Sequence record: NC_070869.1
DNA: 64,000 bases
From: Escherichia phage vB_EcoP_SP5M
Reading direction: 5' to 3' (one strand)
Notes under the pieces: generated by a model
What the model saw: the letters and a program-made list of their open reading frames with translations, nothing else
The model's database searches: none
What the model was told of the DNA's origin: nothing
Program-made: the position numbers and the translations under genes
Shown: in pieces, positions 3,353 to 64,000 of the stretch
How the letters are laid out: each line of letters begins with the position of its first letter
How positions within the stretch are numbered: position 1 is the first letter of the stretch

Positions 3353-3705
3353 AACTAATCGTGGCTGGTGGAAGAGACTTCGTTAATACCCAAGTAATGA
3401 TTACGGTATTAATGGATTTAGTGGAGAAGGGTAAGATTGACCCTAATCCTGAATTAGTATGTGGTATGGCTCGTGGTGCTGATATGCTTGCATACAGCCT
3501 ATGGGCTAACCACAATATGAAAATCCATACATTCCCGGCAGATTGGAAAACTCACCCAAGAAGTGCTGGATATATTCGAAATGCAGAAATGGGTAATTTT
3601 GCAGATGTACTTGTTGCCTTCTGGGATGGTAAATCCAGAGGAACCAAGCACATGATTGATATCATGCAAAGGCTAAATAAACCTGTATACATCGTGAGGT
3701 ACTAA
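3349..3705 (+). CDS. SLOG/DUF2493-like Rossmann-type protein (DprA/LOG-like)
   Basis: Motifs IVAGGRDF ... CGMARGADMLAYSLWA recalled as SLOG family pattern. Confidence 0.45.
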   Translation: MKLIVAGGRDFVNTQVMITVLMDLVEKGKIDPNPELVCGMARGADMLAYSLWANHNMKIHTFPADWKTHPRSAGYIRNAEMGNFADVLVAFWDGKSRGTKHMIDIMQRLNKPVYIVRY

Positions 3706-58022: not shown

Positions 58023-60299
58023 TTACAGGTTCATGCCAAGAGCCGATGCTGGATCTTGGCTAGGGTCATAGTATTGGGAACTAAGTGAATAAGCTGGGTC
58101 TTGTTGAGCAGCTAAATCGCGTTCTGGTATTGAGTTCCCATCAGTCAAAGTATTATATCCAACAGCAGCAGATATGTTGGGGGTAGTTTCCCCTTCTTTA
58201 ATAGGTGTTGTCAATGCCTTAGTTATTTGAAGGTTCTGGTTTCCTTGAGATTGTGCTTTTTGTTTTTCCATATCACGAGCATGTTTAGTACCAGATTCCT
58301 GTTCCAGATAATCCAGGTCTTTAAGGTCACCACTAGAAGCAGCCTCTTTAGCCTTAGCCATATTGAGTGCAATCTTACTTTGCAGCTCTTCATTCTCAAG
58401 CTGTGCTTTCTGAATTGCCAATTGCTTAAGCTGTTCTTCCATAGGGTCTGGCTGTGGTCGCCAAGTACGTAACTCATGAGCCAGGTCAGGCATACGTTTA
58501 AGTTCTGCAATCTTAGCTACAAGAGATAGCGTAATAGTTTGGTCAACCGTATTACCTAGTGTTTGAACCATGAAGCTCAAATCCTGAGACTTCTGGTTAT
58601 CAATTTCAGCAGTGTTAATATCAACCTCAATGTCGAAGTTACCTTTAAGGTCTTCACGGTTAATCTCTACATACTGCTCATTAGTAATACGTACTACTTC
58701 CTTCTCAGATAAGAACACAGCATTCATTGCACAAATCTTAGTACCAATGTCTGCCATACCTTTAGCTAATCGGCGAAGGATTGCCATCTCACGTTTGGAT
58801 GCTGCATCAAGTGCACCACGAATACCAGCAGCCACGTCACCATAAGCAGAACCAGTTACACCACCGGAGAATGCTTTAACACCAGTTAGTGATTCTGCTT
58901 CCTGGTTTTGCATCTGGGTCATTACTATTGCCGACTGAGGTAATTCAGGGAACTTATGTTCCATAATAGCCTGACTAGGATTGCCCTGCATTGGGTTGTA
59001 TTCATAGTCTTGCCCATCGTCATATCGACGACGGTTTAGTGTATCCAGCATCCCTTTAGGATAACCACGTTGACCATTTGCACTACGACCCAACAGGTCA
59101 ATCATCCCACGCATAGTTGCACCAAGAATCGCTTGGTTATCCCCTAAAAGTTCAGCATCGGCTTCACCAAAGAGTTCACGCTTACGTGGCATGTAAGGAA
59201 CAACTACCAAAGGTAACTTACCATCAGGGAATGGGTTCTTCTCCATACGAATAAGAGTAGAACCAATCCAGGTAGCAACAATAGGTTCCAAAGAACCATC
59301 ATCATTGATGTCGTAAAATCCCCAGTATTCATAAGCAACAACTTTCTTACGAAGTGCATCCTTAAACTGGAAGTCGCTTGGAGTTTTACTCTCATGGTCT
59401 GGGTCAGTCATAGGACTGGAGCTTTCCCAGTCAATCTTATCTAAGTTGTGATATAGATCCTTGTTCTTCATGAGGTCTGCTTTGCATGTCTCAAAGGAGA
59501 TAACTGCATACAGAGCCTTATCCAAATCACCATTACAGCTTGGATCAATAACTACGTTATTAGGATTAAGCATTTCAACGGTAGGTCTGTTAACCAGTGC
59601 CTTCTCTACCTCTACTTCAGTAACTCCTGTCTGTATTGCATAGGTAGCTTCTCCAGTTTCATTGAAGTAGTTAACAGCTTCCTTAATATCTTCAGGCATT
59701 GTTTCGTCGTACTCACGAGGATTCTCTGCCTGAAGTTGTAAAGCCTGTTGAAGAACATCTGCCTGTTCCTGGTTCTCAATTGGATACAACTGGAAGACCG
59801 GTGTTTCTGTTTTAATTTTAACAGTCTTACGTTCCCAGCCAATACGAGCAATACCAGTACCGTCATCTACGACACTGTGTACGTAATCATCCACCAGTTT
59901 TACTTTATTAAGCTGGGTACGGAATTGGTAGTTAAGAACTAATTCATTCTGTCGTGCAGCTAACTCATCTTCAAAGGTAACAGGAGTTACTTTAAAGAGT
60001 TTATTAGATGAGAGGAACGGCTCAGACAATGGAGCATACCGCCACTCTGCCTGACGGCGAACCAGTCTGGGTTGGACTTGTGACCGTCCTTTAACCTTTG
60101 GGGGTTTAGCTTTACCCTTGACTTCCATCAGGTCATTCCACTCACGAATCTGTGCCATGATTGCTTCGTGAGCAGGTTTAGCTGATTCCAAATCACCCTT
60201 CAGTAATTGGATACTTGGTTCCTTCTTCCAGTCCGTTAGCTTCTCTGATTGAGCCGGGTCAGGTAAAGGCTTAAAAGTGTCTTGGTGTTCCATAGTCAA
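58023..60299 (-). CDS. Portal protein
   Basis: 758 aa at the N4 portal position; acidic C-terminal region. Confidence 0.65.
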
Positions 60300-60301
60300 T
60301 C

Positions 60302-60802
60302 CTATTCAAAAAGTTTACGGTCAGCCTGAATTTGTTTACCCAACTCAACTAGTTGGTTGTCACGGAGTCTAACAGTTGCCCGGAGTTCTTCAACCAAACG
60401 TCTGCCTTCTTCAAGACTACTGTCGAGTCTGGCTGCATGGCTTGCAAGACTTCTGCACTCAAGGGTTCCGGCTTCGGCTTGACGTTTATATACCGATGCT
60501 CGTCTTTCAGACTGTTGCATCCGGCTGTCGTAATCACTGCTAACGCGAGCAAGCTCGCTTGCGTAATTACTCTCAGCCATCTGCAACCGGGAAGTAAGTA
60601 ACCCGACTTCATAACTATGGTTTCTTTGGAGAGCATTGTATTTGTCCTGTAGTTTTTGTGTTGCCTTCAGGTCTTCGACCTTTTGGTCATCCCATTTCTT
60701 TTGAACAGTAGACTGCCCATTGGAATTGCCCCAAAAGTAAATGGTGGCCCCGAGGACCACCACCAGAAGATAAGGCCAACCTTTAGAGATTAGCATCTTC
60801 AT
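60302..60802 (-). CDS. i-spanin (Rz-like): N-terminal TM helix plus coiled-coil periplasmic domain
   Basis: [16 protein letters not shown] helix followed by charged coiled-coil region. Confidence 0.55.
60349..60612 (-). CDS. o-spanin (Rz1-like) lipoprotein embedded in another frame of the i-spanin gene
   Basis: Signal peptide with lipobox-like AVITTAGC, Pro-rich mature part; entirely embedded. Confidence 0.5.
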   Translation of the reverse strand: MKSGYLLPGCRWLRVITQASLLALAVITTAGCNSLKDEHRYINVKPKPEPLSAEVLQAMQPDSTVVLKKADVWLKNSGQLLDSVTTN

Positions 60803-61418
60803 TACATGCCTCCAGTGGCACATTACCGATTCGGTTAGCTACCCAACCATACGTAAAATCTGGCATGTTCAATGAGGTGTAGTGGTTCAGTTGTTTAGCA
60901 TCAAGTAACTTAATCATTACCTGACATGCTGCAACTTTGCCTCGTTTTTTCTGTAATGCTTTATATGCATTAACAGTACCTGCACCGACTTTACCATCAA
61001 CTTGTATTTTAGGGTAGTCTTTGCCATCACGGGACATTTCATTAAGGGATTGCTGCAACCACTTAGCTGGTCTGATTACACCGGTATTAACACCAGCATC
61101 AACCAGTTTGTGTGTTACAGCAGGAGATATATCAGTGAAGGCTACGAAGTTAGGCTTAAGTACATAGTCATCAATGTATATCTCAGCAGCCATCTCTTTA
61201 GATAAACCCTTCATGGAACCATCCCAACCATATTCAGCAGCCAGAACTTCTTTATGAGATTTAGCTACTGATTGAGTAATACCATGATTAGTTTCCCCAC
61301 CTGGGTCACGCGGATTGTTTACATACCCTCCTTCCATATAGAACACTGCCCCCAGAATAGCAGCGACAACTCCTCCCACTGCACCACCTTTTGCAGCAAG
61401 TTTTTGTTTAGCTTTCAT
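60783..61418 (-). CDS. SAR endolysin, N-acetylmuramidase (GH108-like)
   Basis: Gly/Ala-rich N-terminal SAR-like helix (GGAVGGVVAAILGAVFY); EGGYVNNPRDPGGETNHGIT catalytic motif. Confidence 0.7.
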   Translation of the reverse strand: MKAKQKLAAKGGAVGGVVAAILGAVFYMEGGYVNNPRDPGGETNHGITQSVAKSHKEVLAAEYGWDGSMKGLSKEMAAEIYIDDYVLKPNFVAFTDISPAVTHKLVDAGVNTGVIRPAKWLQQSLNEMSRDGKDYPKIQVDGKVGAGTVNAYKALQKKRGKVAACQVMIKLLDAKQLNHYTSLNMPDFTYGWVANRIGNVPLEACNEDANL

Positions 61419-61668
61419 GAGAATCTTCCTTTGGATGGAATCGTATTAGTCTGCCTACAATGTTTAAGGCAAACAGTGCGATTGTAATGCTGGAACCATG
61501 TGGGATATCTTCAAGGATATGACGAGGCAGTCCCGTCAGCATTGGTTGGATAATATCTACAGCAGAAAACAGAATTAACCCAAACGTGCTAATCTGAACA
61601 GATGCCCACTTCCAGGATTTCTTCCAGTTAGGTACTAGCCCTATCTTTCTTTTTAGCCTGCAAACCAT
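61408..61668 (-). CDS. Putative holin/pinholin (two TM helices)
   Basis: TM helices VQISTFGLILFSAVDIIQPML and SSITIALFALNIVGRLI; directly upstream of SAR endolysin. Confidence 0.45.
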   Translation of the reverse strand: MVCRLKRKIGLVPNWKKSWKWASVQISTFGLILFSAVDIIQPMLTGLPRHILEDIPHGSSITIALFALNIVGRLIRFHPKEDSHES

Positions 61669-61985
61669 GCGAATATCTCCCGTCTTGCAGCAGCCAATAC
61701 ACCAATAATTGCACCTGCTCCAGCCCACACCCACTTACCAAAAATCCCAGCACCAGCAACTTTATGTTTAATGGTGATGAACTCTTCGATGGTAGGTTCA
61801 GACTTAGTGATGCTCTCCTCTACCCGTTTAAGTCGGGTACTAAGGTCGCCCATAGACTCACTTAGCTTTTTAATAGACTCTTCCATTTTCTCCCTTTCCC
61901 TCGATTCACGAGTTTGGTTTTCGAAAATGTTTCTCAGTCTCTCTTCAAGTCTGGCTAGAGTTACGTTATCTGGTTCATTTCCCAT
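61653..61985 (-). CDS. Coiled-coil protein with C-terminal TM helix (holin/antiholin candidate)
   Basis: Charged N-terminal region; C-terminal AGAGIFGKWVWAGAGAIIGVLAAA. Confidence 0.4.
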   Translation of the reverse strand: MGNEPDNVTLARLEERLRNIFENQTRESREREKMEESIKKLSESMGDLSTRLKRVEESITKSEPTIEEFITIKHKVAGAGIFGKWVWAGAGAIIGVLAAARREIFAWFAG

Positions 61986-62157
61986 AGGGACTTTCTCAGG
62001 TTAGTTAAGTCATAATTGACTAAAACAGTCTACCTAATGACTTGTTTGTGGTACAACAAAAACCCTCCCCAACAGTCTAGCTGGGCTGGTTAGTACCTAA
62101 AATATTGAACAATAAATCTGTCTACAACAAAGCCTACAAGGAGGCAATGAGCCACCG

Positions 62158-62187
62158 ATGGACTTCGACGACGACATTCCGTTCTGA
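62158..62187 (+). CDS. Mini-ORF encoding MDFDDDIPF (SSB C-terminal tail peptide)
   Basis: ATG-initiated 9-codon ORF; AAGGAGG 13 nt upstream; hairpin with T tract downstream. Confidence 0.3.
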   Translation: MDFDDDIPF

Positions 62188-62192
62188 TGAAG

Positions 62193-62212
62193 AAAGGGCC
62201 ATGCGGCCCTTT
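62193..62212. terminator. Bidirectional hairpin/terminator (AAAGGGCC-ATGC-GGCCCTTT)
   Basis: 8-bp stem with GC core, T-rich on both sides. Confidence 0.5.
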
Positions 62213-62322
62213 TGATTATGATGATAACAGCTCTATAATCTTTTTAACCAGTTCAGCCACGTATCTGAACCAGATTACAAATGGCGGTTCGGTCGGTTCT
62301 GTTTCACCTTCTATTTTCACCC

Positions 62323-63858
62323 CTACATTGATGGCAGTAGAGAGACATTAACATCTCTCACAAGCCCATCAACACTAGTTAACACAACTGAGATGTCACC
62401 AGTTGAACTATTAATAGATAAGCTAACAGTAACCCCTGTTCCAGAAAGACCAATCCTTCCAGAGCTTGCGACAATTCCGCTGGTGATGATATCAAGATAG
62501 AAATTGGTTTCGTGCCTTATCCCTATAGGTATTTTTATATAATCACCTTGTGCAGTATTGCCAATTCTGCACTCAATCAATATGGCTCTGGTGACGTATG
62601 TATCATATAAATCTTGCGCAATATTGGGCTTAGTGAATGATAACGTTGCTCCCACAGTGGCTGGTAATCTACCTGATGACTGTGCACCAATAATCCGTCT
62701 TCCTTTGATAACCTGTGACATTCCAACATTTACATCATCATCCATACCGAGATTTCCGGTTATAGCTTTATTTAATGTAGGAGCCTTCTGGTTAAGTGCC
62801 GAAGTAACAAAACCGGTCATATCACTTCCAGATATCAGGAGTGTCCCATTACCAGAGCCAAGAACCGATACGTTAAACGATGGAGAATTTGTCCCACCCT
62901 GACCCCACTCTTTAGCTCCGTTTCGGGTTCTCACCCCAGAGATTACTATTTTACCGTTATCAATAATAACAAAGTTTGCTGAGTAGTTATCATTCATTGG
63001 TTGATTAGTACCACTGCGAGCGACGACAACTCCGGTTACAATCCATGACGAATCCTTGCCAGCAACTACCCCTCCTCGTCCAGCCCTGTCGCACAGTTCA
63101 CCTGAAATCTGGTTTTCTATTGATTCATACGCATACCAGTTATCACCAGCGTTCCATTCGTTACGGCATCCCCCGAAAAAGTTACTATTTGCCCCACCGA
63201 CAAGAGCTACGCCTCGGTCATTGGCATTGATTGTGCAACCAATCATCATAGAGTCTATTAAATTTTTAACTCCGTCCCCATTTCCAGATAGTGAACAAAA
63301 GTGTGCTTTCACTGTTGCGATGTATCTTGCTGATCCTTCCTTATTCCAACCAATACCAATAGCAAAACGGTAAATCCCGCACCCTTCAAGTCGAGTACCG
63401 TTGAACTCGGTAGATTTATCTGCGGAATAAAAAAGATACGTTGTTTTATCTCGACCATCAAAAACAATATCCCGGAACACATGACGACCAGTTGAATAAA
63501 ACGGAAAGCTTGCTCCAGCTGCTACACGGATAACGACCCCGCAATTAAGGAAGCTACTGTCATCTGATACAGTGTATGGTCGACGACATCCCCACCCTAT
63601 AAGTGAGAATCCCAATGGAAGCGTAGCGGGATCGCTACCAAGTTCAATAATCCCCAGGTTCCTCGGTATATCAAGGACCATAACTCCTGCAGCTATAGCT
63701 GCTTTTAACGCATAGTCCGCTGAGACTACTGCTCCAGAAGTTGTAAGTAATGCTTGTTGATCCGATTCGGTAAGGTATTCAAAAAGTGACGCACGAATGA
63801 TTCTGTCCAGAGGGGAGGCGTTCCGGGACACCATTGACGCCCCTGTTTCAGAAGACAT
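62323..63858 (-). CDS. Tail fiber / tailspike-like protein, probable beta-helix
   Basis: 511 aa, Gly/Asn/Ser/Thr-rich with repeated G-x-G-x-V/I segments; N-terminus may lie beyond ORF start. Confidence 0.45.
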
Positions 63859-64000
63859 CTCCTGCCTAAGCGTTGCATCACCAACACTAACCCACGCATT
63901 AGGGCTAACACCACCGGTTGATGTAGGGGTTGAACCAGCAGGAACTACCTTAGGTAGTACACCATCCCAACGGTATTTACCACCAGCAAAAACAACCAGT

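Follow-up and report, generated by a model that had tools for sequence, protein, structure and literature searches.

Probable remnant of a siphovirus ssb gene beside the tailspike gene of a G7C-like Escherichia phage

Near the right end of a 64,000-nucleotide (nt) stretch of Escherichia phage vB_EcoP_SP5M (NC_070869.1; hereafter the window, meaning the whole stretch analyzed), a short frame ends like the C-terminal tip of E. coli SSB (single-stranded DNA-binding protein). Sequence comparison identifies the phage as a Gamaleyavirus, G7C-like and N4-related. Very probably, the frame has no function and preserves the last ~20 codons of ssb from a small siphovirus of the Skatevirus/Roufvirus type, a remnant that hitchhiked into the Gamaleyavirus with a tailspike cassette. 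Three properties of a gene remnant were found together, namely homology to the end of an intact gene, a position at the boundary between backbone and imported DNA, and decay or loss in relatives.

Source of the fragment and mosaic structure of its surroundings

Read directly from the sequence, positions 62116-62184 of the + strand form an open frame of 22 codons with the translation ICLQQSLQGGNEPPMDFDDDIPF. The frame carries the acidic C-terminal tip of bacterial-type SSB (...DFDDDIPF), and its last 13 residues agree 13/13 with E. coli SSB, which terminates in APSNEPPMDFDDDIPF when the RefSeq chromosome is translated. This bears out an identity that a first-pass annotation of the window had put forward. 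The same annotation had described a stop-to-stop frame, an AAGGAGG box, an ATG 13 nt behind the box and a GC-rich hairpin downstream, and the sequence contains each of them. The features of the region are as follows:

62074-62111: old left flank before the remnant, common in alignment to ST4, PhAPEC5/7, phiG17, L142 and the P22-like E. coli prophage L154
62112-62123: 12-nt patch ATAAATCTGTCT, the left breakpoint zone by alignment, which holds the TAA
62113-62115, + strand: TAA, the stop closing the frame on the left
62124-62190, + strand: ssb 3′ remnant coding (Q)QSLQGGNEPPMDFDDDIPF, then TGA TGA, matched to the ssb gene of ZCEC08
62138-62144, + strand: AAGGAGG box, equal to donor codons Q-G-G
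62158-62160, + strand: ATG of MDFDDDIPF, the native Met of the SSB tip, with a 13-nt spacer from AAGGAGG
62185-62187, + strand: TGA, the end of the frame, with a second TGA directly after it
62193-62212: type B hairpin, AAAGGGCC-ATGC-GGCCCTTT, with an 8-bp stem and a 4-nt loop

Over the 67 nt from 62124 to 62190, 64/67 positions agree with the ssb 3′ end in Escherichia phage vB_Eco_ZCEC08 and relatives (95.5%; E about 1e-20, or 3e-21 for ZCEC08), a likeness far beyond chance, so that the resemblance to ssb ends proposed in the first-pass annotation holds at the protein and the nucleotide level. ZCEC08 SSB terminates in QQSPQGGNEPPMDFDDDIPF, of which 19/20 residues are those of the window frame, and the two have in common a linker of the form QQS-P/L-QGG (QQS-L-QGG in the window frame, QQSPQGG in ZCEC08 SSB). 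Homology to the intact gene stops at 62124, and the remainder of ssb is missing from the window. Compared to the siphovirus ssb genes, the window therefore has the 3′ end only, without OB-fold or start codon and with a TAA 22 codons before the stop. No OB-fold ssDNA-binding domain is present: the frame comprises 22 codons, no + strand open reading frame (ORF) lies upstream, and the upstream DNA is Gamaleyavirus backbone. In E. coli the same tip, known as SSB-Ct (MDFDDDIPF), is the docking site for SSB-interacting proteins and the end of a DNA-bound tetramer; the window tip has the same last 13 residues, but is an orphan coding fragment.

The chromosomal ssb gene of E. coli aligns over only 43-48 nt at 87.5-90.7% identity, and only the last 13 residues agree. 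Because the phage match is longer and closer and the E. coli linker differs, the alignments identify a phage ssb gene, and not a bacterial one, as the apparent source. Direct capture from a chromosomal or plasmid ssb of E. coli by illegitimate recombination during infection could account for the 13 shared residues and for the nucleotide matches found in 284 E. coli genomes. It is nonetheless extremely unlikely, since the linker QQS-L-QGG fits phage SSB (QQSPQGG) and not E. coli SSB (SAPAAPS), the downstream hairpin resembles the flanks of phage ssb genes and not that of E. coli ssb, and the E. coli genome set contained no plasmid matches (a dedicated plasmid collection was not searched). One of two alternatives in the first-pass annotation, a relic of a captured bacterial ssb 3′ end, is thus upheld as to the relic, while its bacterial origin gives way to the phage match (95.5% over 67 nt versus 87.5-90.7% over 43-48 nt). 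Nor does the fragment look captured for its own sake, as it forms the flank of an imported tailspike cassette.

The ssb 3′ ends that match the remnant family belong to Bas77-82, ZCEC08, Sf11, DS8, a Salmonella set labeled 'seszw', KpV2811 and YX3973. Bas77-81 form the Skatevirus cluster of small siphoviruses (46-48 kb), relatives of Roufvirus, and Bas82 is a Nonanavirus (BASEL-II paper, PMC11990801). We place ZCEC08, Sf11, DS8, the seszw set, KpV2811 and YX3973 provisionally in the Skatevirus/Roufvirus type, most of their records being formally unclassified. T1-like (Drexlerviridae) donors were dropped, since Bas77-81 belong to the Skatevirus cluster with its Roufvirus relatives. Weberviruses (Snook, RCIP0019) were likewise set aside: their tailspike is related, yet it lies in the same orientation after a small unnamed gene that ends the recombination module, and is not convergent.

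Around the remnant, the DNA changes origin within a short distance. Positions 61900-62111 match Gamaleyaviruses (93% for ST4), and homology to ST4 ends at 62111. From 62193 rightward the window matches the 3′ flank and tailspike gene of Klebsiella phage SBP at 88-90%, and further into the tailspike it matches SP7 and SEA1f (91%), with cassette homology ending at 63867 for SBP and at 63985 for SP7. The remnant lies between backbone (to 62111) and cassette (from 62193), with the donor gene order preserved. The 12-nt patch at 62112-62123 agrees at 1/12 positions with the ST4-type remnant and at 1/12 with the donor ssb; its length equals that of the ssb segment it replaces, and the one single-nucleotide difference from the sibling contig L149 falls inside it. 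Taken together, the alignments show a mosaic of backbone to 62111, a 12-nt patch, an ssb 3′ end, an imported hairpin, a small-ORF remnant and a tailspike module. In DNA pattern searches, neither the left junction AAATCTGTCTACAACAAAGCC nor a pattern of hairpin plus flank had a match in viral contigs, and a pattern of ssb end, hairpin and flank had none in metagenome contigs. A shorter pattern, TCTGTCTACAACAAAGCC, gave one match, which we discarded as a chance occurrence inside an unrelated gene.

The order in the window (ssb end, hairpin, convergent tailspike) is also the donor order. In ZCEC08 and KpV2811 an intact ssb converges on a tailspike or tail-fiber gene with only a hairpin terminator between them, and in Bas77-81 a single 160-nt match takes in both the ssb and the tail-fiber gene. 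The type B hairpin follows the intact ssb of KpV2811 and is also found 3′ of the tailspike gene in Klebsiella phages SBP and VLCpiS10a. Skatevirus/Roufvirus-type ssb genes (ZCEC08, KpV2811, Bas77-81) and the window thus have the last ~20 codons, the stop or stops, the terminator hairpin and the convergence on a tailspike in common. A donor-like counterpart of an older remnant version was seen in the 47-kb IMG/VR contig L103, where an intact SSB of 167 amino acids (aa) is followed by a terminator hairpin and a convergent 623-aa tailspike. This contig and the Gamaleyavirus contig L147 are collinear, beginning at the tip ATG and continuing past stop codon and hairpin into the tailspike 3′ end, with ~90% identity over the first 150 nt past the hairpin, and the two evidently are a donor-like and a recipient-like pair.

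These arrangements lead us to propose the following course of events. In these small siphoviruses, ssb converges on the tailspike or tail-fiber gene and shares one terminator hairpin with it. A receptor-binding module of the tailspike that recombines into another phage could therefore bring along the terminator and the last part of ssb. An ancestor of the Gamaleyaviruses would have gained a first copy of the remnant, which most lineages keep in decayed form. In the window lineage, a later tailspike swap whose left crossover fell within the old remnant or at its edge would then have replaced the distal part of that remnant with a fresh, still perfect copy from the new donor.

Decay among relatives and the question of expression

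We compared the region in 20 relatives, comprising 10 database Gamaleyaviruses and 10 assembly contigs that encode the same gp63 protein as the window. The tailspike allele differs from that of the window in 19/20, and the remnant is intact only in the one relative with the same allele, the 96%-identical sibling L149. Twelve relatives have a damaged but recognizable remnant, altered by substitutions, premature stops, frameshifts and deletions, and in the other seven the coding remnant is absent and only the hairpin adjoins the conserved leader. The decayed forms read in the alignments as follows:

PhAPEC5/7: NEPTMGPDNSIPF, then stop (MGPDNSIPF, stop)
phiG17: MGFSDDIPL, stop
L142: TIANSDSIPFC, stop
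G7C, Bas96 and L148: MGFED, stop
L141/146/147: the MGFED-stop type with more changes
ST4/L144: no ATG

With an intact frame in 1/20 relatives, a decayed one in 12 and none in 7, the coding frame lacks the conservation of an expressed gene, and the pattern evidently is one of neutral decay and loss. The mini-ORF, whose conservation in related phages the first-pass annotation had singled out as informative, is decayed or absent in 19/20. The contrast between a fresh copy in the window and decayed copies in relatives makes the remnant useful for placing events in relative order of age.

The window and L149 differ at 2 positions in the 337 nt of the intergenic region. We did not take this low divergence as conservation specific to the mini-ORF, because it extends over a mosaic block of ~1 kb (61530-62500) that includes gp63 and the 3′ end of the tailspike gene. 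Over 59001-64000 the comparison with L149 is patchy, with blocks of 0-1% divergence (60300-60600, 61530-62500, 63200-63600) alternating with blocks of 9-13% (e.g., 62500-62800, in the tailspike gene). This indicates probable mosaic recombination of very recent date even within one tailspike allele.

The first-pass annotation had offered, as its other alternative, an expressed decoy peptide. Because no start codon opens the 22-codon frame, the sole possible product would be the 9-residue MDFDDDIPF from the ATG at 62158, which could compete for SSB partners or modulate SSB-dependent transcription by the N4 virion RNA polymerase (vRNAP). The tip, the ATG, the upstream AAGGAGG and the downstream hairpin are all intact, in favor of such a peptide. 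Each of these apparent signals is, however, also found in the donor. The AAGGAGG is part of CAA-GGA-GGC, the Q-G-G codons, and occurs inside the intact ssb of ZCEC08, L103, YX3973-type phages and others; the apparent start and ribosome-binding site are therefore both native donor ssb codons. As judged from these comparisons, the ATG, the AAGGAGG and the hairpin are inherited from the donor ssb and its terminator, and none evolved in place. The usual optimal spacing between a Shine-Dalgarno sequence and the ATG is roughly 5-9 nt, which the 13-nt spacer exceeds. No sigma-70-like + strand promoter was found from 60997 to the ORF (1.1 kb upstream), and the overall count of such sites was below the shuffle expectation.

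The biology of N4 bears on the decoy in two directions. E. coli SSB (EcoSSB) is required for early transcription by the N4 vRNAP, as the first-pass annotation had stated and a review confirms, but no direct EcoSSB-vRNAP interaction was detected with purified proteins (PMC4496689). Late transcription in N4 proceeds leftward across the right half of its genome (PMC4496689), so the fragment would be antisense to it. Tip differences in an orphan lineage formed by YX3973, L127 and IMEP24 are synonymous throughout, which could speak for the peptide. Set against the decay or absence of the remnant in 19/20 close relatives, the inherited signals, the long spacer, the lack of a sigma-70-like + strand promoter and the antisense locus, an expressed decoy appears extremely unlikely. 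In our view the mini-ORF warrants no coding-sequence annotation and no pursuit as an SSB decoy.

Further orphan tips were sought in IMG/VR with an MDFDDDIPF-stop pattern, which returned 9 apparent orphans among 120. Frameshifts in full-length ssb genes account for four of these, and another two are cut off by the end of the locus, which leaves only YX3973, L127 and L110 as true orphans. Since the pattern demanded an intact tip, these three are unusable as an argument for conservation.

A cis-acting role on the − strand was also weighed, in which the antisense remnant would act as a spacer between tandem terminators, or as a 3′ untranslated region or leader element for expression of the tailspike or of gp63 and the lysis genes. 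The remnant does lie between two hairpins on the transcribed strand, and the type B hairpin folded as − strand RNA reaches −13.3 kcal/mol (z −2.2). Seven relatives with identical or near-identical gp63, however, have no remnant and a single hairpin by the conserved leader, the sequence decays freely in other relatives, and no Rfam family matches the remnant region. As relatives manage without the sequence, we regard such a role as very unlikely.

Several observations weigh against a hitchhiking ssb remnant. The exact donor was not found, as the databases hold no sequence in which this tailspike allele occurs together with both the type B hairpin and the ssb end. The 12-nt patch fits neither parent, and the left crossover could have been homologous or illegitimate. 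The perfect state of the window copy would be expected from its recency, yet selection may have acted in this one lineage. Lastly, in YX3973, L127 and IMEP24, 9/9 nucleotide differences within NEPPMDFDDDIPF and its stop are synonymous, which suggests either gene conversion from an intact ssb or selection on the tip in those phages.

The remnant and tailspike exchange between phage groups

Orphan ssb ends are also found beside tail genes outside the Gamaleyaviruses. The T7-like phage IMEP24 has one 3′ of its tail-fiber gene with the last codons of a siphovirus VRR-NUC gene attached, and the junction between VRR-NUC and ssb tail is that of the siphoviruses YX3973 and L127. A P22-like prophage adjoining intS in an E. 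coli chromosome carries a frameshifted orphan copy 3′ of a tail gene. In Escherichia phage AV101 (Ackermannviridae, 157 kb; L136, about 1500-1744), a block made up of a piece of Gamaleyavirus gp63, the leader, a G7C-type decayed remnant and the hairpin lies directly 3′ of one of the tailspike genes, evidence that tailspike flanks have been transferred between N4-like podoviruses and Ackermannviridae. The occurrence of orphan ssb ends 3′ of tail genes in several phage groups implies that flanking DNA regularly travels with tailspike modules.

Gene fragments at phage mosaic junctions are already known, and the window resembles them in having a truncated piece of a donor neighbor at the edge of an import and neutral decay in descendants. 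Unlike ordinary junction scars, the ssb fragment recurs by tailspike genes in at least four other phage groups and has apparently been re-used as a crossover zone. The fragment also bears modestly on how host-range modules move between phage families. As a marker, it points to Skatevirus/Roufvirus-like donors of such modules in N4-like, T7-like and P22-like phages.

Three terminator types follow the remnant or its relics, and each also stands behind an intact ssb of small siphoviruses:

Type A hairpin, CCCCGCCGAAGCGGGG: G7C, phiG17, PhAPEC (variant), L140-142 and L146-148; behind intact ssb in ZCEC08, DS8, the seszw set and L103
Type B hairpin: the window and L149; behind intact ssb in KpV2811
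Type C, AAAAGGCCCCTTTCGGGGCC: ST4, L144 and the E. coli prophage; behind intact ssb in Bas81 and Bas82

PhAPEC7 and the E. coli prophage L154 have the same flank-to-ssb junction, and the other phages that share the left flank differ by internal deletions. A single left junction joined to three kinds of right-hand sequence implies that crossovers took place later within the remnant, and since the terminator types diverge directly after the stop codon, these would have fallen inside its coding part. The comparison thus suggests that crossovers inside the remnant may have occurred repeatedly in Gamaleyaviruses.

We explored the hypothesis, compatible with a hitchhiking origin, that the remnant acts as a recombination substrate through which siphoviruses and podoviruses would repeatedly exchange receptor-binding modules by homologous recombination. 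Protein constraint would keep the ssb tip nearly invariant in donors and so provide a stretch of near-identity 3′ of tailspike cassettes, with the conserved tailspike hinge as the other homology arm on the 5′ side. The left flank common to the window, ST4, PhAPEC5/7, phiG17, L142 and prophage L154 with three different terminators after it, the presence of types A, B and C behind intact ssb genes, their divergence immediately past the stop codon and the second shared segment in the tailspike hinge are all consistent with this, as is the rise in identity to the donor ssb from ~1/12 in the patch (62112-62123) to 64/67 from 62124. Against it, the patch of 12 nt at the window breakpoint fits neither parent, the IMEP24 breakpoint lies beyond the ssb remnant, many relatives' exchanges apparently end at the terminator and not in the remnant, 67 nt is a short arm, and the independent events are few even before shared ancestry of the flanks is allowed for. 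We therefore see a recombination substrate as a reasonable possibility that falls somewhat short of an even chance. The broader form, in which the ssb-tip remnant would be a portable homology arm for repeated tailspike swaps of N4-like, T7-like, P22-like and Ackermannviridae phages with small siphoviruses, we put forward a little more tentatively. The unexplained patch, the IMEP24 breakpoint elsewhere and the few independent events account for this caution about a homology arm.

Exchanges in G7C-like phages are bounded by a terminator-like stem-loop, and Babenko et al. (2019, 10.1101/542787) asked whether a mechanism stimulates recombination there; ssb is mentioned nowhere in their text. The terminator-like stem-loops of G7C-like phages (Kulikov et al. 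2012), as far as they are described in 10.1101/542787, represent the same locus and the same phenomenon. The G7C repeat given there, CCCCGCCGAAGCGGGG, corresponds to the type A hairpin beside decayed remnants, and the window has type B instead. New compared to Babenko et al. (10.1101/542787) is the tracing of hairpin and flank to siphovirus ssb genes, namely to their 3′ ends and terminators. This origin is a candidate, testable answer, namely shared homology, to why G7C-like recombination concentrates at the stem-loop. If the remnant does act as a homology arm, it would account for the high frequency of tailspike exchange at the locus, and the sequence might be put to deliberate use as a landing pad in the engineering of tailspike swaps.

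We noted several other recombinant ends in passing. In YX3973 (L003, about 3440-3596), L127 and IMEP24 (L004, 3440-3571), the ssb tail lies in frame behind a VRR-NUC-like TAG (...KPSEPLIFDGF, TAG, QPRQQ...NEPPMDFDDDIPF, stop), and L127 has a second in-frame TAG. One possibility suggested by this is amber read-through, whose product would be a nuclease ending in an SSB tip; another is repeated gene conversion from intact ssb genes. The Klebsiella myovirus vB_KpM_FBKp34 (L139, 1680-2540) has a gene whose 286-aa product ends in AEPPMDFDDDIPF and is not related to E. coli SSB in sequence. This gene matches the window remnant over its last 44 nt at 93% identity, the TGATGAA past the stop included, and converges on a tail-fiber-like gene with a 'chaperone of endosialidase' domain. 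In Klebsiella phage VLCpiS10a (L138, about 2490-2560), a tail protein gene ends ...YQDDVPF, stop, where its DNA is homologous to that of the ssb tip, and the type B hairpin comes next; here an ssb remnant may have been recruited as the last codons and stop of another gene.

Genomic setting

On the − strand, the genes for portal, spanin, endolysin, holin and gp63 lie to the left of the frame and the tailspike gene to its right. The ORF map thus agrees with the first-pass annotation, which had set the frame between lysis genes and a tail gene on the opposite strand. The annotation was also right that the phage has a separate, unrelated SSB-like gene: an N4-type SSB, the gp45 homolog, is encoded at 32607-33407, with 97.8% identity to G7C gp45 and an unrelated C-terminus. 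The neighboring features are:

61653-61985, − strand: gp63 homolog, the backbone gene left of the intergenic region (ORF list; positioned as G7C gp63)
61986-62066, − strand: leader upstream of gp63, backbone, kept in every Gamaleyavirus compared in the alignments
62068-62085, − strand: terminator-like hairpin with a T run, from a consensus scan
62216-62320, − strand: 34-codon ORF from the tailspike stop to the hairpin, a decaying remnant carried with the cassette
62323-64000, − strand: tailspike gene occupying the gp63.1 slot; its C-terminal module is of the capsule-depolymerase type, and the frame runs off the window edge
63875-63985, − strand: tailspike hinge-coding segment of ~110 nt, conserved beyond the variable module, a candidate 5′ crossover zone

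The gp63 protein of the window has an identical counterpart on 322 blocks of public assemblies. The tailspike is listed as 511 aa from an internal ATG; the frame is in fact open to 63999 at the window edge, and the tailspike of the sibling contig L149 is 672 aa long with an N-terminal Tail_spike_N domain. The open frame and the L149 protein imply that the window tailspike is probably chimeric, with a Gamaleyavirus anchor domain fused to a depolymerase module of Klebsiella type that was imported. It is 91-94% identical to the tailspikes of the T7-like phages SP7 and SEA1f and of the Jedunavirus SBP. The hinge segment is 78% identical to the tail-fiber gene of IMEP24 and 74.5% identical to the tailspike gene of ZCEC08, and the enzymatic modules are unrelated. 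In Klebsiella phage SBP the 34-codon ORF is interrupted by an in-frame stop; compared to the 62-aa ORF annotated in VLCpiS10a it is internally deleted, and its differing codons are nonsynonymous in 10-16 cases versus synonymous in 1-2.

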